A DNA stretch of 64,000 nt from Eubacteriales bacterium (lineage in GTDB: Bacteria > Bacillota > Clostridia > Oscillospirales > CAG-272), in assembly GCA_045605765.1 (NCBI GenBank), contig JAZUQQ010000027.1, positions 1,095 to 65,094 of the forward strand, in the 5' to 3' direction. The notes below the pieces were generated by a model. It was given only the letters and a program-made list of their open reading frames with translations, had not been told where the DNA came from and did no database searches. This document shows positions 9,276 to 54,263 of the stretch, in pieces (the stretch's first letter is position 1; each line of letters starts with the position of its first letter). A program made the position numbers and the translations under genes.

Positions 9276-11360
9276 GTGGCAAATCTTAATTCGCTCTTCG
9301 GAAGCCGCGTCTTTAACGACTCGGTAATGAAGGAAAGACTCCCCAAGGAGACCTACATATCACTCAGAAATACGATATCCGAGGGTAAGGAACTTGATAT
9401 TTCGGTTGCGAACATCGTGGCAAACGCGATGAAGGACTGGGCTATCGACAACGGTGCAACGCACTACACGCACTGGTTCCAGCCAATGACAGGAATTACC
9501 GCCGAGAAGCACGATTCCTTTATGACCGTTCAAAGCGACGGCACGGTGCTCACCAAGTTCTCGGGCAAAAATCTCATTAAGGGCGAGTCGGATGCCTCGT
9601 CTTTCCCGTCCGGCGGACTTCGCGCGACCTTCGAGGCTCGCGGATACACCGCGTGGGACCCGACCTCTTACGCCTTCATAAAGGACGACACGCTCTGCAT
9701 TCCCACCGTATTCTGCTCTCACGGCGGAGAGGTTCTCGACAAAAAGACTCCTCTGCTCCGCTCTATCGAGGCGTTTTCGCATCAAGCGCTCCGCGTTATC
9801 AAGCTTCTTGGAGATAACGAATCCACAAGAATTACCCCGATGGTCGGTGCAGAGCAAGAATATTTCCTCGTTGACAAGGATATGTACGAAAAGCGCAGCG
9901 ACCTTATCTTCACAGGAAAGACCCTTTTCGGTGCTCGTCCTCCCAAAACACAGGAGCTTAACGACCAGTATTACGGAACCATCAGCCCCAAGGTGAAAAA
10001 TTATATGGCAGACCTCGACCGCGAGCTTTGGGCGCTCGGAGTCTACGCCAAGACCGAGCACAACGAGGCAGCTCCCGCACAGCACGAGCTTGCTCCCACA
10101 TATTCAAACGCAAACACAGCAACCGACCACAACCAGCTTATGATGGAGACTATGAAAACGGTCGCGCTCCGTCACGGATTCGTATGTCTGCTCGGAGAAA
10201 AGCCGTTCGACGGCATCAACGGAAGCGGAAAGCACAACAACTGGTCGGCATCGACGAACACCGGCACAGATCTCTTCAAACCGGGCAAGGAGCCTTACGA
10301 AAACACGCGTTTTCTTCTCTTCCTTGCTGCTATGATAAAAGCGGTTGACCAGTATCAGGATCTTCTGAGAATTTCGGTAGCGTCGGCGTCCAACGACCGC
10401 CGTCTTGGAGGTCACGAGGCTCCGCCCGCGATACTTTCTATCTTCCTCGGAGAAGAGCTTACCGATATAATAGACTCGATAATTACCGGTAAAAAGTACG
10501 GTGGAAGCAAGAAAATGAACATGGAAACCGGTGTAAACACCCTTCCCGAATTCGTTCGTGATAACACCGACAGAAACCGCACCTCTCCCTTTGCATTCAC
10601 GGGCAACAAGTTCGAATTCCGTATGCCGGGCGCATCGCAGTCGATAGCAGACCCTAACATCGTGCTCAATACGATAATGGCAGAGGCACTCTGTGAGTTT
10701 GCCGACAAGCTCGAAAAGAAGTCCGACGACATAGAAAACGCCGCTCGCCGTCTTATCAGGGACACCTTCAAAAAGCACCGCCGTATTCTCTTTAACGGTA
10801 ACGGCTACGCCGAGGAGTGGATAACGGAAGCCGAGGCGCGCGGTCTTTGCAATTATCGCACCACGGCAGACGCAGTCCCTCACCTTACAGATGCGAAAAA
10901 TGTGTCGCTCTTCGCGCGTCATCACGTTTACACCGAAGCCGAACTCATCTCGCGCCGCGAGATAATGTTCGGAGATTACGTTAAGGTAACACATATCGAG
11001 GCGTCGACGATGCTCGATATGGCAAAAAAAGAGATAATACCCGCTGCTCTGTCTTATATGAAGGAGATCTCGGAAATGGTTGTCAACTTCTGTGAGATCG
11101 GACTTGATGCATCGTCCTATAAGGCGCTTGCGAGTAAAATCTCGGAGAACACGGCAAATCTTTCGGCTTCTCTCGACGGGCTCACCTCTTGCCTTGAAAA
11201 GCTCGATTCGATCAAAGCGGTTTCCGAGCAGGCGGAGTTCTGCCGCGACGGAGTTCTCCCGAAGATGAACGAGATCAGATACTACGCCGACGAGCTAGAA
11301 ACACTCGTTGCAAAGAAATACTGGCCCTTCCCCACCTACGGCGAGATGCTGTTTGTTTAA
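9276..11360 (+). CDS. glnN: glutamine synthetase type III
   Basis: About 700 aa GSIII architecture (…THYTHWFQPMTG…, …NGSGKHNNWS…). GTG at 9276 is preceded by acgagg. The start is uncertain. Confidence 0.9.
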   Translation: MANLNSLFGSRVFNDSVMKERLPKETYISLRNTISEGKELDISVANIVANAMKDWAIDNGATHYTHWFQPMTGITAEKHDSFMTVQSDGTVLTKFSGKNLIKGESDASSFPSGGLRATFEARGYTAWDPTSYAFIKDDTLCIPTVFCSHGGEVLDKKTPLLRSIEAFSHQALRVIKLLGDNESTRITPMVGAEQEYFLVDKDMYEKRSDLIFTGKTLFGARPPKTQELNDQYYGTISPKVKNYMADLDRELWALGVYAKTEHNEAAPAQHELAPTYSNANTATDHNQLMMETMKTVALRHGFVCLLGEKPFDGINGSGKHNNWSASTNTGTDLFKPGKEPYENTRFLLFLAAMIKAVDQYQDLLRISVASASNDRRLGGHEAPPAILSIFLGEELTDIIDSIITGKKYGGSKKMNMETGVNTLPEFVRDNTDRNRTSPFAFTGNKFEFRMPGASQSIADPNIVLNTIMAEALCEFADKLEKKSDDIENAARRLIRDTFKKHRRILFNGNGYAEEWITEAEARGLCNYRTTADAVPHLTDAKNVSLFARHHVYTEAELISRREIMFGDYVKVTHIEASTMLDMAKKEIIPAALSYMKEISEMVVNFCEIGLDASSYKALASKISENTANLSASLDGLTSCLEKLDSIKAVSEQAEFCRDGVLPKMNEIRYYADELETLVAKKYWPFPTYGEMLFV

Positions 11361-17489: not shown

Positions 17490-18485
17490 ATGATAAATAT
17501 TCCGAATGTTATAACGCAGTTTTCAGCATATAAACAGCTTATACAAAACCGTTCGCCCAAAACGGTAGAGCAGTACGAAATAGACCTCACCCTTTTTCTT
17601 AAATACGTCAAGGCTATGCAACACGGAGTGCGTGAGAGTGACGTCGAGGCTGTCGACAAGACCGACATTTCGGATGTTGATGTAAATTTTCTCTCAGGGA
17701 TAACTCCCGATATGATAATGAATTTTCTTATGTACGCCGCTCGCAGACGCGGCAACAAATCGTCTGTCACCGCGCGTAAGCTCTCGGCAATACGCAGCTT
17801 TTTCAGATATTATACGGTAACAAAACGCCTTCTAAGCGACAATCCCGCAAAGGATATAGACTCTCCTGCCGTAAAACGCGCTCTGCCCAAATATCTTACC
17901 GTGGATGAAAGTATTGCACTTCTCTCGGCTATTGAGAACGATGTTGACTCCAAATTCAGGGAACGCGATTTTGCCATAGTCACCCTCTTTCTAAACTGCG
18001 GAATGCGTCTTTCCGAGCTTGTAGGAATCTCCTTTTCAGACATCGACCCCGATATGCGCTCGCTGAAAGTTACTGGTAAAGGAAGTAAAAACAGAATAGT
18101 TTATCTGAACGAAGCCTGCAAAAGCGCGCTTAAAAACTATATTGCCGTAAGAGGAAGGGTCGAGGTGCACGATAAAAACGCTCTCTTTATCAGCCGTCTA
18201 GGAACGCGTATATCGAACAAAACAGTCCAGTGGATGGTCGAAAAATATTTGAAGCGCGCAGGGCTTGAATACCGAAACTTCTCGGTGCATAAGCTCCGCC
18301 ATACCGCCGCCACGCTTATGTATCAGAGCGGTCAGGTCGATATCCGAGTACTAAAAGACATTCTCGGTCACGAGCAGCTCAATACCACACAGATATACAC
18401 GCATATCAGCAATACTCAGATGGAGCAGGCGATGAGCGCAAATCCTCTTTCTGATATAACGCTTAAAAACAAGACCGAGGAGTAA
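17490..18485 (+). CDS. tyrosine recombinase XerC/XerD family
   Basis: C-terminal catalytic signature HKLRHTAATLMY … LGHEQLNTTQIYTH. Confidence 0.9.
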   Translation: MINIPNVITQFSAYKQLIQNRSPKTVEQYEIDLTLFLKYVKAMQHGVRESDVEAVDKTDISDVDVNFLSGITPDMIMNFLMYAARRRGNKSSVTARKLSAIRSFFRYYTVTKRLLSDNPAKDIDSPAVKRALPKYLTVDESIALLSAIENDVDSKFRERDFAIVTLFLNCGMRLSELVGISFSDIDPDMRSLKVTGKGSKNRIVYLNEACKSALKNYIAVRGRVEVHDKNALFISRLGTRISNKTVQWMVEKYLKRAGLEYRNFSVHKLRHTAATLMYQSGQVDIRVLKDILGHEQLNTTQIYTHISNTQMEQAMSANPLSDITLKNKTEE

Positions 18486-46476: not shown

Positions 46477-47637
46477 ATGGAGCTTACCTACGTTGCTACC
46501 TGTCTTTTCGGACTTGAAAAATTTTTAGGAGAAGAAATTGACGCTCTCGGTTACACGCGTATATCGACCATTGACGGTCGCGTGACCTTCATCGGAGATA
46601 TATCGGCGATCGCGCGCTGCAATATCGGTATGCGCTTTGCCGAGAGGCTGTACATAAAGCTCGGAGAGTTTACAGCCGACACCTTTGACTCACTTTTTGA
46701 GGGAACGAAGGCTCTCCCTTGGGAGAATTTTATAGGGGAAAACGATACCTTCCCCGTTTCGGGACATTCTGTGAAAAGCAAGCTTTTCAGTATTCCCGAC
46801 TGTCAGTCGATAGTTAAAAAGGCGATAGTAGAACGCCTTAGAATGAAATATCATCTCTCTTTTTTCCCCGAGGACAAAACTCTTTACAGAATCGAATTTT
46901 TCATTCTAAACGATACTGCAAGTCTTATGATAGACACATCGGGCGTCGCCCTTCACAAAAGAGGCTACCGTCCCTCGTCGAATGCGGCACCTCTGCGCGA
47001 AACTCTCGCCGCCGCACTCGTCAAAATAGCACGCCCGAGAGAGGACGTGCTATTCTGGGATCCCATGTGCGGATCGGGAACTATTGCGATCGAAGCCGCG
47101 CTGATGCAGACAAACCGCGCGCCCGGTATGAATCGCCGTTTTGACAGTGAAAAATTCCCTCAGATAGAGGCAAATATATGGAAAATGGCGCGCGAAGAGG
47201 CACAGAATAATATAAAAGTAGACTCTACATTTGAGGTCTACGCCTCGGATATTGATATGAGCTGTGTCGAGCTCACTCGCGAAAATATACGCCGTGCAGG
47301 AGTCGGCGCACACGTCAAGGCGTTCGAGAGAAACGCTCTTGAAATAAAGACCGGCGGCAGACGCGGCACGGTTGTGTGCAATCCACCCTATGGTGAAAGA
47401 CTTTTTTCTATGGAACAGGCGGAAGAACTCTATCGAAACATGGGACGAGCCTTCTCGCATCTCGACAATTGGCAGATATACGTCCTCACCTCACACGAGG
47501 ACTTTGAGCGACTCTACGGACGTCGCGCGGACAAGGTCAGAAAGCTCTATAACGGTATGATAAAGTGTAATTTCTATCAATTTTTCAAAAAACGCGACGA
47601 CTTTTCGCCTAAATACAAAGGAAATTATAAGAAATGA
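46477..47637 (+). CDS. THUMP-domain class I SAM-dependent RNA methyltransferase (RlmK/L / YpsC-like)
   Basis: THUMP N-terminal domain, DPMCGSGT SAM motif and NPPYG catalytic motif. Confidence 0.85.
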   Translation: MELTYVATCLFGLEKFLGEEIDALGYTRISTIDGRVTFIGDISAIARCNIGMRFAERLYIKLGEFTADTFDSLFEGTKALPWENFIGENDTFPVSGHSVKSKLFSIPDCQSIVKKAIVERLRMKYHLSFFPEDKTLYRIEFFILNDTASLMIDTSGVALHKRGYRPSSNAAPLRETLAAALVKIARPREDVLFWDPMCGSGTIAIEAALMQTNRAPGMNRRFDSEKFPQIEANIWKMAREEAQNNIKVDSTFEVYASDIDMSCVELTRENIRRAGVGAHVKAFERNALEIKTGGRRGTVVCNPPYGERLFSMEQAEELYRNMGRAFSHLDNWQIYVLTSHEDFERLYGRRADKVRKLYNGMIKCNFYQFFKKRDDFSPKYKGNYKK

Positions 47638-48971
47638 AGAAAAACGATCTCTACACGGTAGAAATAAGCGATATGAATAACCTCGGCGCAGGCATCTGCA
47701 AGATAGACGGCAAGGTCGTCTTTGTGCGCGGCGGCGTTACGGGGGACAAGCTTGAAATCGGCATAATAAAAAATCTCTCTGACTATGCGGTAGCGAGAGT
47801 GAATAAGATAATCGAGCCCTCTCCTATCAGAACAGAAAACGATTGCCCGTCCTTTAAGCGTTGCGGCGGTTGCTCCTTCCGCCACGTCAGATACGAAAGC
47901 GAAAAGCTTTTCAAGAAAAACTACGTCGAAAACGCCTTCAAAAAGGTCGGACTGTCTGTAAAGATCGAGGACGTGATCTCGACCGAGTCGCCCGACGGCT
48001 ACCGAAACAAGGTGCAATACCCTGTCGGAGAAAATTGGAAGATCGGCTTTTTTGCCGAGCACTCGCACGATATAGTCGAGGTTTCTGACTGCGCAGCGCA
48101 GGATAAAGAATTTTCCGCAATTCTCGATGAAATAGTTAAATTCGGCAAGGCAAACAAGATCCCGACCTACGATTTCGAAAGCGGCAAAGGGCTCGTGCGC
48201 CATGTTTACCTACGTAAAGGTCGCGGAAGCGGCGAGATCATGGTCTGCCTCGTTGTAAACGGGGAGAGCCTTCCAAGCTCGGACAAGCTTTGCAAAGCCC
48301 TTGCCGAGCGCTTCCCCGCCATCAAATCCATAATTTTGAATATAAACGAAAAGCGCACGAACGTCATTCTCGGCGAAAAAAACATCACCCTTTGGGGCAA
48401 GGATACGATAGAGGATATTTTCTGCGGACTGAAAGTAAAAATCTCGCCGAAATCATTCTATCAGGTCAATCGAGAGTGTGCTGAGCTTATCTGTAAAAAA
48501 GCTGCAGAGTTCGCAGAGCTTATATCTGGGGAGCGGCTCGTCGACCTTTTCTGCGGCATCGGAACGATCGGTCTTTCAATGATAAAGGACTTTCCGGACG
48601 CCGAGCTTCTAGGAGTCGAGATAATTCCCGAAGCGGTCGAAAATGCAAAAGAAAACGCTACGGCAAACGGAATGACGAACGCGAAATTCATCTGCGGCGA
48701 TGCAAATTCTCCCGAAATTACGGGCGCAGACGTCGTCGTTGTCGATCCCCCTCGCAAGGGCTGCTCGAGCGAGCTTATAAAGCGCATCTCGGAAATCTCG
48801 CCATCGCGTGTGATCTACGTTTCCTGCAATCCTGACACCCTCGCGCGTGACTGTAAGCTCTTCGACGCCGAAGGATACAAGGTCACACGAGCACTGGCGG
48901 CGGACATGTTTTCACGGACAGGGCACGTTGAGAGTGTCGTTTGTCTGACGCGGTCAGACAAAGCGACGTGA
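47634..48971 (+). CDS. rlmD: 23S rRNA (uracil-C5)-methyltransferase RlmD/RumA family
   Basis: TRAM domain, Cys cluster CPSFKRCGGCSF, DLFCGIGT, DPPRKG. The last six codons (RSDKAT) come from the inserted DNA. Confidence 0.9.
   Translation: MKKNDLYTVEISDMNNLGAGICKIDGKVVFVRGGVTGDKLEIGIIKNLSDYAVARVNKIIEPSPIRTENDCPSFKRCGGCSFRHVRYESEKLFKKNYVENAFKKVGLSVKIEDVISTESPDGYRNKVQYPVGENWKIGFFAEHSHDIVEVSDCAAQDKEFSAILDEIVKFGKANKIPTYDFESGKGLVRHVYLRKGRGSGEIMVCLVVNGESLPSSDKLCKALAERFPAIKSIILNINEKRTNVILGEKNITLWGKDTIEDIFCGLKVKISPKSFYQVNRECAELICKKAAEFAELISGERLVDLFCGIGTIGLSMIKDFPDAELLGVEIIPEAVENAKENATANGMTNAKFICGDANSPEITGADVVVVDPPRKGCSSELIKRISEISPSRVIYVSCNPDTLARDCKLFDAEGYKVTRALAADMFSRTGHVESVVCLTRSDKAT
48924..48950 (+). 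repeat. left 27-bp direct repeat (rlmD 3' end)
   Basis: cacgttgagagtgtcgtttgtctgacg, identical to 50407-50433. Confidence 0.9.
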
Positions 48972-49186
48972 TATAACGCCTTACGGCGCGTGATATGGAC
49001 ACCTGCGGTGTCGTGATATAGAACGCTTCGCGTTCGTGATATGTCGCTTGCGCGACGTAAGGCGATAGCGTTCCACGCGCACAAAGTGCGCATATCACGA
49101 AAGCCAACGGCTTTCCATATCACGCGCGACGAAGTTGCGCTATATCACGACGGCAACGCCGTCCATATCACTCCACCGTAGGTGGA
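48936..49186. repeat. heptamer-linked hairpin ladder (GTGATAT x4 … ATATCAC x4, ten variable GC hairpins)
   Basis: GTGATAT at 48968, 48990, 49013 and 49036. ATATCAC at 49092, 49117, 49142 and 49165. Between them are hairpins with 4-7 bp stems and 3-4 nt loops, each with a different sequence. Confidence 0.85.
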
Positions 49187-49201
49187 CTAAAAGGAGTATT
49201 T

Positions 49202-49555
49202 ATGGCAAAAACCTCACACGGGCTCGCGATCGAATTTGCAGTTGAGATTACTGAATTGTGCTCAAAAATAAAGGGACGACCTGAATATACAAAACAACTT
49301 ATTCGCAGTGCTTCTTCGATCAGCGCAAACATTGCAGAAGCAAAATATGCCGAGAGTAATGCCGACTTTGTTCATAAGCTCGAAATAGCCCAAAAGGAAG
49401 CAAACGAAACCGAAACGTGGCTTAGTGTTTTGTGTAAGAGCGGTATTATTGATGAGCTCACTTTCAAATCCTTGCGAAACAAGTGTGGTAAGATCAGAAG
49501 AATGTTGATTGCTTCGATTACTACTGTTAAGTCCAAAATGAACGGACAAAAGTGA
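49202..49555 (+). CDS. four-helix-bundle protein (23S rRNA intervening-sequence protein / Avd-like family)
   Basis: 117 aa with the pattern …QLIRSASSISANIAEA…F..KL.IA.KEANETETWL…. SD aaaggag. Confidence 0.8.
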   Translation: MAKTSHGLAIEFAVEITELCSKIKGRPEYTKQLIRSASSISANIAEAKYAESNADFVHKLEIAQKEANETETWLSVLCKSGIIDELTFKSLRNKCGKIRRMLIASITTVKSKMNGQK

Positions 49556-49662
49556 TTTTTGAGCAAAACTCGAAAGTGCATTTTACAGCTGTTTAGTATA
49601 ACATATCGAAAGGCTTATCATATGATAGACAGAAGTAAACAAGAAGATAAGGAGAAATTAAA

Positions 49663-50382
49663 ATGAAAATTTTATCCATTGGAAACAGCTTTTCCCAAGA
49701 TGCGCAAAGATATCTGCATTGCCTTGCAAAACACGACGGTACAGAATTGAAGACCGTAAATCTTTATATCGGTGGTTGCCCTTTGCGAAAGCATTATCTT
49801 AATATGCTGGATAATAACACCGCGTATGATTTTGAATTTAACGGAGAACAAACAGGCATCAAGGTTTCCATCTGACAAGCACTTGTCAGCGATGATTGGG
49901 ATTTTATCACCTTACAACAGGCAAGTCCTTTGAGTGGACAATATAAAACCTTCTCGCCCTATATCGAGGCACTGGCTGAATATGTCAAAAATTATTGCCC
50001 TCACGCAAAAATTCTGATACATCAGACATGGGCATATGAAAATGGCTCTGAAAAACTGATGCGCTTGGGTTATGTTTCTCCCAAAGAAATGCTATCTGCC
50101 ATTTGCGATTGTTATAGCAAAGCGGCGCAGAATATCAATGCTTACGGAATCATCCCTTGCGGTGAAGCCATGATGCAGGCTTTGGATATGGGTATTGGAA
50201 AGGTACATCGCTATACTTTTCATGCATCTCTTGGAGTAGGCAGATATTTGTTGGCGCTTTGCTGGTATAAAATCCTGACGAAAAAGGATATCACAGGCAA
50301 CTCGTTTAACGATTTTGACGTGCCCGTAACCGAACAAGAAAGAGAAATCGTAATAAAAGCGGTAAATTCTATAATGGTATAA
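49663..50382 (+). pseudogene. SGNH/DUF4886-like hydrolase gene interrupted by one in-frame TGA (49873-49875)
   Basis: The two track ORFs (49663-49875 and 49930-50382) are in the same frame. The read-through sequence …IKVSI*QALVSDDWDFITLQQASPLSGQY… is continuous and family-like. The N-terminus has ILSIGNSFSQDA. Confidence 0.7.
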
Positions 50383-50406
50383 ATTATACCTTTTACTCTT
50401 TTTACC

Positions 50407-50433
50407 CACGTTGAGAGTGTCGTTTGTCTGACG
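50407..50433 (+). repeat. right 27-bp direct repeat
   Basis: Identical to 48924-48950. Confidence 0.9.
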
Positions 50434-50483
50434 AGAAAATAACCGTTCTTTTATTTACCAAGCACAAAGAAAGGACAATGCAA

Positions 50484-50816
50484 ATGGCAGAAATGAAACT
50501 CCACCACGCTCCGTTTGAGATGATAAAAAGCGGAGAAAAGACAATAGAGCTTCGTCTGTTTGACGAAAAGCGCAGACTTCTCGAGATCGGAGAAAAAATT
50601 GTATTTACCGACACCGCCACGGGAGAAAAGCTGACAAAAACAGTTTTGAAGCTGCATACATTTGACAGCTTTGACGAGCTATACAAAGCTCTGCCTCTTT
50701 TACAATGTGGTTACACCAAAGAAAATATTGGTACGGCGCATCCTCGCGATATGGAAGCGTATTATTCCGCGGATCAGCAAAAAAAATACGGTGTTATCGG
50801 AATAGAGCTTGAGTGA
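50484..50816 (+). CDS. ASCH-domain protein
   Basis: …HHAPFEMIKSGEKTIELRLFDEKRR… typical ASCH N-terminus. Start uncertain (50478 or 50484). Confidence 0.75.
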   Translation: MAEMKLHHAPFEMIKSGEKTIELRLFDEKRRLLEIGEKIVFTDTATGEKLTKTVLKLHTFDSFDELYKALPLLQCGYTKENIGTAHPRDMEAYYSADQQKKYGVIGIELE

Positions 50817-53120: not shown

Positions 53121-53377
53121 TAATATAAAGGCAGGGTGTCGTACACAATATCGTGAAGATGGCAGGGTTCCACCTCTTCTTTTGCCAGAAGATAAAGAAA
53201 TCGTTCGGCACTTTCTCTGTCGCAACAGATATCTTCAGCAAAAGATATGTCATCTGATGTCTCTATGCTCATCGAATATATATCGTCTTCACGCGTCTTG
53301 GAGATATAAAGTTTATACGTTATCAACATATTGATTGAATTTTGCTTATTTATTACAACTAACTCACGTAAATTCAT
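53111..53377 (-). CDS. small hypothetical protein (88 aa)
   Basis: SD agagga 5 nt before the ATG. No family confidently recognised. Confidence 0.5.
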   Translation of the reverse strand: MNLRELVVINKQNSINMLITYKLYISKTREDDIYSMSIETSDDISFAEDICCDRESAERFLYLLAKEEVEPCHLHDIVYDTLPLYYQS

Positions 53378-53639
53378 ATTTATCCTCTTTTTTCACTACA
53401 TATTGTGTCTTTCGTTCAGCATTTACAACATCATAATACCATATTTTGATATTTACGTCTCCTATCGTAACTATGCGTGCTTCGACAAGGAAACGCTTTA
53501 ACGCATCATTTTTGCGTTTTTTTGATGAATAATAAATTACGATTTGTATAAATATACCTGTTTTATAATAAAATTGTGAAGCTAAAAACGCCTGCAAACC
53601 ACACTATATATTGATTTATACTAACTAAAGGGAGGTACA

Positions 53640-54263
53640 ATGAAAAAAAATCAACAAAAAGAACCCACGAAAATGAGCAGAGTGCTCTCGCTTGCTTGGG
53701 TATTCTTCAAGATAGGTCTGCTCACCTTCGGTGGCGGATACGCTATGATACCGATAATTCAGTCAGAGGTTTCGGAGAAGCGGGGCTGGATAAGAGAAGA
53801 AGAGCTTATGCAAGTTATCACCATAGCCGAATCCACGCCCGGTCCTATAGCAATAAACTCGGCGACTTACGTCGGATATAAGATTTGCGGCGTGCTCGGC
53901 TCGATAGCGGCAACCGTTTCGGTCGTGCTCGCTCCCTTTACTATCATATATCTCATATCGCTTTTTCTCGAAGCCTTTATGCGCTTCACGGTAGTTGAAA
54001 ACGCTTTCAGGGGTATTCAGATAGCGGTTGCATTTTTGATACTGTCTGCGGGAATAAAGTTTATCAAAAAGCTTAAAAAAGAGATCTTCCCGATAGTAGC
54101 GGTATCTTTGACCGTCGCCATAATGCTCCTTCTCGACGTTTTCGCGCTTTCCTTCTCCTCGGTATATCTTATAATTATGGGAGCACTCGCAGGATTTGTC
54201 ATAACTGCGATCAGTCTTTCTCAGAAAAAGAAAGCAGATAAAAAGGGGGACAAGAACAAATGA
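53640..54263 (+). CDS. chromate transporter family protein (short CHR, first half)
   Basis: FGGGYAMIPI…ESTPGPIAIN signature. Confidence 0.85.
   Translation: MKKNQQKEPTKMSRVLSLAWVFFKIGLLTFGGGYAMIPIIQSEVSEKRGWIREEELMQVITIAESTPGPIAINSATYVGYKICGVLGSIAATVSVVLAPFTIIYLISLFLEAFMRFTVVENAFRGIQIAVAFLILSAGIKFIKKLKKEIFPIVAVSLTVAIMLLLDVFALSFSSVYLIIMGALAGFVITAISLSQKKKADKKGDKNK

Follow-up and report, generated by a model that had tools for sequence, protein, structure and literature searches.

The question raised by the locus examined here is what kind of element can sit within the very end of a housekeeping gene without, to all appearances, costing that gene its end. In a stretch of 64,000 nt from an Eubacteriales bacterium (assembly GCA_045605765.1, contig JAZUQQ010000027.1, positions 1,095 to 65,094; hereafter the window), the 3′ end of rlmD, a gene of the rumA family, is occupied by an insert of 1456 bp (1.46 kb) that lies between two direct repeats. 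It is argued in the following that this insert is probably a single gene cassette that is not autonomous, and that it belongs to an integron-like system of arrays attached at the sequence CAYGTNGA of rlmD/rumA-family genes. The cassette-array family at rlmD to which it belongs, in gut Clostridia, is previously undescribed, in that literature searches on rlmD/rumA cassette arrays, on integron-like systems in Firmicutes, on non-autonomous serine-recombinase cassettes and on Gut-1 turned up no earlier account of it. The features that define the two junctions are these:

47634..48971, plus strand: rlmD, encoding a rumA-family 23S rRNA U-C5 methyltransferase (TIGR00479 rumA, 392 bits; Pfam PF05958)
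48924..48931, plus strand: left-junction copy of the shared core CACGTTGA (consensus CAYGTNGA, the His-Val-Glu codons), found at 47/47 junctions
48924..48971, plus strand: cassette-borne surrogate RlmD C-terminus (E1), HVESVVCLTRSDKAT*, of which the first 27 nt are the left repeat copy
50383..50406, plus strand: cassette-end arm ('P-arm') ATTATACCTTTTACTCTTTTTACC, a diverged copy of the family consensus ATATACCTTTTGGAGTCTTGACC
50407..50442, plus strand: displaced native rlmD end (E0), HVESVVCLTRK*, of which the first 27 nt are the right repeat copy

A preliminary description of this DNA, made from its letters alone, had reported a perfect 27-bp direct repeat, and the exact 27-mer CACGTTGAGAGTGTCGTTTGTCTGACG is indeed present in two copies, at 48924-48950 and 50407-50433. 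No third copy exists in the 64-kb window, even when three mismatches are allowed, and the chance expectation for such a repeat is 0 (100 shuffles). The left copy terminates the rlmD open reading frame (ORF; 47634-48971), which reads …HVESVVCLTRSDKAT*, such that all rlmD codons from 48924 onward are supplied by the cassette. The right copy runs on as AGA AAA TAA and yields …HVESVVCLTRK*. The latter had been taken for the ending of the uninterrupted gene, and precisely this …CLTRK* ending closes rlmD in three relatives (L001, L002 and L003). Contigs from other contexts show breakpoints at both 48924 and 50407. Between the repeats, profile searches agree with the content first proposed, namely a hairpin ladder, a four-helix-bundle gene and a TGA-interrupted SGNH-like gene; to these can be added a conserved leader element, termed P60, ahead of the last gene and the arm behind it. 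The only gene families represented in the insert are PF05635 and DUF4886, with no recombinase, transposase, conjugation, mobilisation or phage gene amongst its contents.

With regard to relatives, six genomes (L001–L006) encode an RlmD 80–90 % identical to that of the window and share its gene order, and all six carry different content between rlmD and the conserved downstream genes. The number of cassettes per array ranges from one to at least five: L001 possesses three rlmD-end copies bounding two cassettes, L006 possesses five rlmD-end copies, and L002 harbours a different cassette at exactly the position of that in the window, followed by the orthologous ASCH gene. Each cassette is closed by a conserved arm (…TATACCTTTTGGAGTCTTGACC) that directly abuts an rlmD-end copy starting with CAYGTNGA; within the arm are two direct repeats of TATACCTTTTGGAGT, rather than inverted repeats. 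A scan of metagenomes with part of the arm returned 21 further stretches, and in 21/21 the DNA that follows the arm encodes an RlmD end, HVE-(S/T)-(V/I/L)-(V/L)-C-L-x-R…stop. In several of these contigs the array is headed by the rlmD of yet other species. The idea that the insert arose by site-specific insertion with regeneration of the gene end, as had been suggested, is thereby borne out, since relatives with the same flanking genes carry different cassettes at the same junction and the cargo of the window recurs behind distant rlmD genes, as detailed below.

Complete cassettes could be delimited in 21 cases, and span 256–2469 bp; nearly all contain a single ORF on the rlmD strand, which starts ~40 nt past the junction. 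Their cargo includes a DNA methylase with an unannotated partner, DUF4268/PD-(D/E)XK-like and DMP19-like proteins, and many small membrane proteins and ORFans, with no recombinase amongst the cassette cargo proteins. The largest cassette (cassette 0 of L069, as oriented; 2469 bp) holds two genes. One encodes an N6/N4 DNA methylase (Pfam E = 1e-54), the other a protein of 362 aa with no family match, and the two may form a restriction-modification pair. Six database proteins of 26–61 aa (P0121–P0126) are translations across arm and rlmD-end junctions, i.e. annotation artefacts.

The junctions themselves are uniform. To the left of CAYGTNGA lies either rlmD or the arm at all 47 junctions, and nothing else. 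To the right, variation falls mostly on third codon positions (entropies of 0.45, 0.24 and 1.08 bits for the three positions across 47 copies), the Cys, Leu and Arg residues are retained in at least 45 of the 47 copies, and serine codons switch between AGT and TCN. A coding-type substitution pattern of this sort is expected only if these segments serve as a real RlmD end, which implies that each cassette has its own surrogate end at its 5′ side and the arm at its 3′ side. The 48-nt surrogate end of the window is found, identical, at an internal array position in L001, behind a cassette-end arm. The arm consensus was built from 33 junctions, and the window copy at 50383-50406 aligns with the arms behind the DUF4886 genes of two unrelated contexts, L071 and L072 (AATATACCTTTTGTACTYTTGACC). 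Comparison of L004 with L005 shows identity of 95–97 %, then 75 %, then 63 %, with the change starting exactly at the CAY codon of the core. In L004, moreover, the variant end AGTTTAGTTTGTCTGAC is matched by a compensating GTCAGACAAACTAAA in the leader, with which it is predicted to pair, and it follows that the surrogate end travels with its cassette. The 27-bp identity in the window is therefore that between the cassette's own mimic of an RlmD end and the displaced native end, and no target-site duplication is involved. Distal displaced ends decay in other arrays (e.g. HIKSVVTRTQK* in L002), and that of the window is intact. Given this distribution, the CAYGTNGA core at 48924-48931 is the probable exchange region.

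The history of the cargo gene is equally informative as to how such units have spread.

49663..50382, plus strand: DUF4886 (SGNH-type hydrolase) cargo gene, inactivated; Pfam PF16227 matches both halves

Two lesions are apparent, an in-frame change of Arg (AGA) to TGA at 49873-49875 and a change of Asp to Tyr at 50212-50214, by which HRDxFH now reads HRYTFH and the DxxH motif is broken; judged by its sequence, this copy is dead. In contigs from three public gut/wildlife metagenome runs, position 50212 is G rather than T, which restores the Asp of DxxH and indicates that near-identical cargo copies with an intact motif circulate. The cargo has 4448 homologues, the best of them 84 % identical, 239–240 aa in length and intact. 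It is absent from loci L001–L070, and hence from all six close relatives. In five homologue contexts (L071–L076), the DUF4886 gene occupies one of the first three places behind a RumA-family gene, and the synteny differs from one context to the next. The cargo protein is 82–84 % identical between the window and L071/L072, whereas the host RlmDs are merely 35–36 % identical, a disparity that demonstrates horizontal transfer. In both L071 and L072 the gene ends in the arm AATATACCTTTTGTACTYTTGACC, which is followed by the displaced end HVETIVLLCIK* or HVEIVVCLTIS*, respectively. DUF4886 also occurs with three different leader types. Two samples with an identical protein, L074 and L075, show 0 mismatches over 2246 bp, and then diverge totally just after …GTCGTTTGTCTGACG; beyond this point L075 enters a second DUF4886 copy and L074 a ladder cassette, demonstrating strain-level rearrangement at a cassette junction. 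As regards that second copy, comparison of L075 2258-2406 with L074 10729-10880 would fit a tandem duplicate, or else the point at which the two ends of an excised circle are joined head to tail. More broadly, the tails that follow HVE vary widely among 120 RlmD homologues, and identical ladder-type tails are found on RlmDs that are ~50 % identical.

A route by which such arrays could form may be outlined as follows. The attachment site would be the His-Val-Glu codon block some ten codons from the rlmD/rumA end. Each cassette consists of (i) a surrogate RlmD C-terminus that includes a stop codon, (ii) a leader followed, as a rule, by a single ORF on the same strand as rlmD, and (iii) a conserved arm of ~24–70 nt ending in …TTGACC. 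The leader in the window comprises the ladder, the four-helix-bundle gene and P60, and that of many other cassettes is a mere ribosome-binding site with a start codon overlapping the surrogate stop. A circular cassette would recombine, by way of its arm and CAYGTNGA, with the same core in rlmD; the surrogate end would then complete rlmD, and the previous end would be pushed behind the cassette, giving rise to the 27-bp repeat. Repeated insertion on the rlmD-proximal side would generate arrays in which the newest cassette stands first and distal ends decay. Overlap of surrogate stop and cargo start as ATGA is found in 8 of 15 short-leader cassettes, with four more starting within 15 nt, and a consensus scan of the window cassette returned no convincing promoter or terminator between rlmD and cargo; cargo is probably expressed, as far as can be read from these arrangements, via rlmD read-through and translational coupling. 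The recombinase would act in trans, and the likeliest candidate would be a rumA-specific large serine recombinase, such as those borne by integrative and conjugative elements (ICEs), prophages and islands.

This brings the argument to the enzyme. As the preliminary description had stated, rumA 3′ ends are hot spots of integration: ICEs and related elements with a large serine recombinase target the last ~11 codons of the gene. These elements insert at the GA of a GAG codon (Glu), the crossover reported for streptococcal rumA elements, are bounded by direct repeats of 2–21 bp, occur as tandem insertions, and carry attP inside the 3′ end of the recombinase gene (PMC4120198, PMC4701971). In group B Streptococcus (GBS), the native rumA end is ECVALLQRSKG, for which the left ends of the elements provide look-alike RumA termini (PMC4120198, PMC4701971). 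The window core CACGTTGA contains the published GA, and the displaced ESVVCLTRK corresponds to the GBS ECVALLQRSKG. Thus the cassettes have a target in common with vanG elements, ICE-r, Tn1549/Tn5252-type ICEs, CTn5 and '_rum' prophages, i.e. the Glu codon of the HVE motif ~10–11 codons from the rumA 3′ end, and in both cases the left end is fused in frame to give a look-alike RumA C-terminus, with the native end displaced to the right junction (PMC4120198, PMC4701971). The differences lie in scale and content. The known elements measure 16–100 kb, bring their own recombinase with attP in its 3′ end, and contain transfer or phage genes; the cassettes, in contrast, measure 0.25–2.5 kb, usually hold one ORF and no recombinase, end in a short non-coding arm and form arrays of one to at least five. 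Their surrogate end, moreover, is 9–18 codons in length, and in many cassettes its stop codon is coupled to the start of the cargo gene.

A comparison with relatives for larger elements at the same site had been suggested, and one such element is present in L077, which has the synteny of the window and an RlmD 85 % identical to its own. Here, rlmD is fused in frame at CATGTCGA to a segment of ~100 codons that opens an element of more than 10 kb at the same core. Plasmid pAPRE01 carries a homologue of this segment that shares DNA, in a different reading frame, with the 3′ end of a gene for a serine recombinase of 606 aa; the attP layout there is arm + CATGTGGA + HVETVALLSK…, and gut phage-like contigs and '_rum' streptococcal phages match as well. 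The cassettes thus copy, in miniature, the attP layout of this element family, without the enzyme. The span of arm, core and end, about 55–60 bp, matches the size of a serine-integrase att site. In Planococcaceae loci, too, serine recombinase genes abut rumA ends.

L022 10629-12131, L025 1642-3195 and L043 9364-10998 (all three on the minus strand), and L041 7039-8604: large serine recombinase genes at the rumA 3′ end

The genes in this list, from Solibacillus/Ureibacillus and one Lachnospiraceae genome, converge on the rumA 3′ end or directly follow it. The encoded recombinases have C-termini that cease to resemble one another beyond …SKPSAFY(V/I)S, which would be expected of genes with attP at their end. 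Taken together, a serine recombinase acting in trans is the most likely catalyst of cassette movement.

Several observations weigh against the cassette interpretation as set out above, and particularly against its enzymatic part. No recombinase is present in, or within 8–10 kb of, any array, and the arm of the family is absent from phage, plasmid and viral/provirus contig searches. With the exception of tiny junction ORFs, no protein in a set of 5.8 billion ends in the arm-encoded peptide, and the arm is thus not demonstrably a relic of a recombinase gene. A same-species empty site was not found, the nearest database RlmD being 91 % identical, nor was an excised circle seen in the low-depth contigs of four runs. 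The conservation of core positions is in part imposed, since metagenome loci were picked with a pattern that included part of the arm and the core, and the junction filter demanded HVE plus three residues; the loci found by protein (L001–L006 and L071–L076) are independent of that arm/core pattern. Apparent exchange points are heterogeneous, with L004/L005 indicating the 5′ end of the core and L074/L075 switching to the right of a polymorphism located after GA, such that either homologous exchange between repeats also contributes or crossover does not occur at GA. Finally, the site is only weakly symmetrical about GA (dyad score of 0.38, where 0.25 is expected), and little weight is placed on this result. 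Two further results concern the same searches. The RlmD-end segment has no match in viral/provirus contigs. Descent of the arm from the 3′ end of a recombinase gene was also tried as an explanation and is unsupported: its 42-aa in-frame peptide matches only six tiny junction ORFs, and upstream of the arm the frame stays open over short distances that are not conserved between copies.

Certain of these points would be accommodated if the cassettes were real but had been moved by RecA-type homologous recombination after DNA uptake, over the ~60–100-nt repeats between cassettes (arm, RlmD end and sometimes P60). Variable exchange points, leaders that are shuffled among cassettes (DUF4886 being found with three types), repeats of 27–100 nt on both sides of every ORF, and the lack of an array-linked recombinase would all be natural outcomes of such a process. 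Homology alone, however, leaves unexplained why the same arm and in-frame RlmD end accompany unrelated ORFs, and why the arm stops at an identical base before CAYGTNGA in more than 40 junctions. Cassettes are also found behind rlmD genes of 35 % identity with unrelated flanks, and their insertion position is a proven recombinase target; this explanation is accordingly considered unlikely. Slightly less credence still is given to a tyrosine recombinase (Xer/integron-integrase-like) as the driver of the system, which would make it a distant analogue or relative of the integron. One such enzyme is encoded in the window:

17490-18485, plus strand: Xer-type tyrosine recombinase, 331 aa, scoring below the XerC/XerD equivalog cut-offs; sole recombinase in the window

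The logic of the arrays (promoterless, co-oriented single ORFs, newest first) resembles that of integrons, and the two TATACCTTTTGGAGT direct repeats of the arm could be arm-type binding sites. Against this, the Xer-type gene lies 31 kb from the insert, adjoining sporulation sigma-factor/SpoIIGA-like genes, and is apparently housekeeping; the target codon is that of serine recombinases; four cassette ends, tested on both strands, gave no attC-like single-strand hairpins (z = -2.07 to +0.20); and complete integrons were not found in any surveyed Firmicutes genome (PMC4889954).

The two remaining explanations dispense with a cassette system altogether. The preliminary description had left it open whether the insert was a decayed remnant or a non-autonomous element. 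It is the second of these that is favoured, given that the insert has the standard anatomy of recombinase-less cassettes of 0.25–2.5 kb, and its derivation from a once-autonomous ICE, prophage or island at rlmD is very improbable. Large elements do use this site in the close relative L077, the cargo gene is a pseudogene here, and GC content is 0.35–0.42 in the cargo part versus 0.47–0.55 in the flanks and upstream. Nevertheless, the insert contains no remnant of recombinase, conjugation or phage genes, its compact anatomy is the same as that of more than 20 other single-gene cassettes, and five or more other genomes possess the unit of cargo and arm as an intact cassette. Least credible of all is that the repeat arose without foreign DNA, by local tandem duplication, as part of an ancestral arrangement or through an artefact of assembly, the first of which had been named beforehand as the explanation that would undo the proposal. 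Whilst the 27-mer copies are identical and the assembly derives from a metagenome-type contig, the DNA between them is unrelated to rlmD, and the cargo is missing from all six relatives yet present behind distant rlmD genes. The same junction types are seen in independent assemblies, and both junction regions are covered by contigs of four runs, so that this last possibility can practically be set aside.

If the insert is, as proposed, a cassette, a broader and more tentative reading becomes possible, namely that gut Clostridia (Oscillospirales and relatives) possess a functional analogue of the integron, with the rlmD 3′ end as platform, single-gene cassettes, a serine recombinase in trans and an accessory ladder leader; we regard this as an even-handed possibility that stops somewhat short of probable. 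The rlmD 3′ end would then double as attachment site and expression signal, and each cassette would rebuild the end of the gene and couple its own translation to it. As the surrogate end would make attL resemble attB and attR resemble attP, insertion could be repeated, and could be undone with no need of a directionality factor. The ladder and four-helix-bundle gene (the orphan Gut-1 RNA class) would form an accessory leader module. As in integrons, small, mostly promoterless, co-oriented single-ORF cassettes of mostly obscure function are arrayed at one chromosomal site, a conserved recombination element ends each of them, the newest probably stands first, and expression probably derives from the upstream transcript of the platform. 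Unlike integrons, there is no intI beside the array, the ends of the cassettes neither form imperfect palindromes nor fold, and the attachment site lies inside a housekeeping gene, the end of which every cassette must rebuild; the hosts, furthermore, are Clostridia.

A second point of reference is the staphylococcal cassette chromosome (SCC) and its pseudo-SCC derivatives, which occupy the 3′ end of rlmH/orfX, likewise an rRNA methyltransferase gene that is preserved, and are bounded by direct repeats. Recombinase-less units amongst these, as well as the cis-mobilisable elements (CIMEs) of streptococci, are mobilised in trans by Ccr serine recombinases or by a neighbouring ICE, and form tandem composites. 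The window insert shows corresponding features, with att-like boundaries and no recombinase, and would similarly be mobilised in trans. SCC units differ in their target gene and site, and in being tens of kb in length with many genes; neither a family-wide single-ORF cassette format nor translational coupling to the target gene is known for SCC.

The leader of the window cassette merits separate consideration, as it is considerably more elaborate than most.

48936..48967, plus strand: H0 hairpin, in which the RlmD-end segment is paired with the first leader bases; predicted in the minimum free energy fold
48968..49195, plus strand: hairpin ladder, with 4x(GTGATAT + small hairpin), a central part, 4x(small hairpin + ATATCAC) and, ahead of the ribosome-binding site, one last hairpin
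49202..49555, plus strand: four-helix-bundle gene, PF05635 '23S rRNA intervening sequence protein'/TIGR02436 (Pfam E = 8e-26; NCBIfam E = 2e-28)
49557..49613, plus strand: 'P60', a conserved 57-nt leader element TTTTGAGCAAAACTCGAAAGTGCATTTTACAGCTGTTTAGTATAACATATCGAAAGG, directly upstream of the cargo ribosome-binding site

The first of these, which joins the repeat to insert DNA, had been noted previously and is recovered in the predicted fold; P60, like the arm at 50383-50406, is an addition to the features then described. The ladder as a whole has a predicted fold of z = -7.7. Its spacer heptamer differs across loci (GTGATAT, GCGATAT, TGAATTG, GTGAAGT and TCGATAT), with the reverse complement always present in the 3′ half, and this covariation across five ladder types supports, at the level of sequence comparison, a nested ladder fold. 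Matches to the Rfam family Gut-1 (RF01706) score 25.1 bits for the window ladder and 32.5–37.6 bits for the GTGAAGT variants, all of them below the gathering score of 50, and ladder 5′ halves reach E = 0.001 at best. Like the ladders, Gut-1 consists of a series of short GC-rich hairpins with a constant heptamer spacer (GUGAAAU); it models three hairpins, whereas the ladders add a second half with the complementary heptamer and stand directly after the rlmD end. Unlike the Gut-1 model, the whole ladder can, in predicted folds, form stacked junctions. Gut-1 may therefore correspond to the 5′ half of such cassette leaders. Gut-1-like ladders below threshold are seen directly after rlmD ends at window 48968-49195, L053 251-321, L067 86-156, L065 17-104 and L058 1250-1321, and no other Rfam family was found in the region.

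The 117-aa four-helix-bundle protein scores well above curated cut-offs (Pfam, 90.7 vs 33.8 bits; NCBIfam, 98.8 vs 24 bits). At the nucleotide level its gene is 92 % identical to that of L001, where it lies in the second cassette and thus at another array position, and 86 % identical to that of L006; the module is slightly more alike between genomes than are the flanking genes. PF05635 rRNA intervening sequences similarly combine a protein gene with an adjoining, highly structured RNA-like element. Avd of diversity-generating retroelements is a PF05635/TIGR02436 four-helix-bundle protein as well. Unlike these, the window gene is located neither in an rRNA gene nor beside a reverse transcriptase.

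P60 exists in 17 copies in related arrays (the window plus 16 in L001–L006 and L053–L070), always ahead of the cassette ORF. It begins with a small conserved hairpin, UUUUGAG-CAAAA-CUCRAAA, and on its 5′ side lies either the end of the four-helix-bundle gene (GGACAAAAGTGA) or, behind a small hairpin, a sequence resembling that end (GGGACAAATGATGA). Its identification as a canonical sigma-70 promoter was considered and rejected, as a consensus scan finds no acceptable -35/-10 pair in the conserved part. One might guess that the leader modules serve in RNA processing or insulation. In several arrays, GC-rich palindromes resembling repetitive extragenic palindromic (REP) elements (…CCCGTAGGGGCTGGCGCCCACGACAGCCCG…GGGACGTCGAAGGCGCCGTCCCCTAC) sit between the rlmD end and the cassette leader:

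L002 9320-9420, L003 6105-6205, L004 ~10590-10690, L001 11535-11615 and L076 ~9815-9890: REP-like palindromic elements

As for the surroundings of the insert, an rlmL-like gene and rlmD lie upstream, and genes for ASCH, DUF3267, APH and SASA proteins lie downstream.

50478..50816, plus strand: ASCH-domain gene, neighbour on the distal side (Pfam PF04266; 84 % nucleotide identity to L002)

It was considered whether this ASCH gene might be a further cassette, a weak arm-like stretch being present behind it. This was not adopted, as its divergence from L002 equals that of the flanks; the gene is absent in L001, and in the window it is probably ancestral. In another lineage, L078, the same site does hold an ASCH gene as cargo, flanked on both sides by RlmD ends with which it is in frame (1970-2420). 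Its right arm (…CAGACAACAGAT followed by GAGACGGTGG) resembles the attP arm of the pAPRE01 serine-recombinase gene (…AAAGACAACGCATGTG followed by GAGACGGTAG). 'Fusion proteins' of RlmD and ASCH are also on record (P0144 and P0152). Further downstream, behind the SASA esterase gene, the composition profile shows very low GC content (0.29–0.36) and strongly negative GC skew at 53150-53750. The 64-kb window contains no tRNA genes, and no further copies of the insert elements outside the insert. Exact-protein look-ups of the window RlmL-like, four-helix-bundle and ASCH proteins returned nothing on record. Contigs of the four runs map to the locus with a fragmentary depth of 2–3, and to the modules at multi-copy depth.

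A practical consequence may concern annotation: cassette insertion gives rise, as a side effect, to the RlmD C-termini, 'RlmD fusion proteins' and tiny junction ORFs of these genomes. The orphan Gut-1 RNA motif and one class of PF05635 proteins may also find their genomic context here. Furthermore, the junctions may represent natural, minimal serine-integrase att sites that leave their target gene intact, and would as such be of interest for genome engineering. Hitherto, large ICEs and prophages were the sole elements known at the rlmD/rumA site. In textbooks, it is the integron that serves to stockpile and shuffle single genes, and the arrays described herein suggest that abundant gut Clostridia arrived at the same solution by another route. 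They may thus constitute a new reservoir of accessory genes, and a route for their traffic, within the gut microbiome, encompassing a DNA methylase, nuclease-like proteins, a DNA-mimic family, hydrolases and small membrane proteins.

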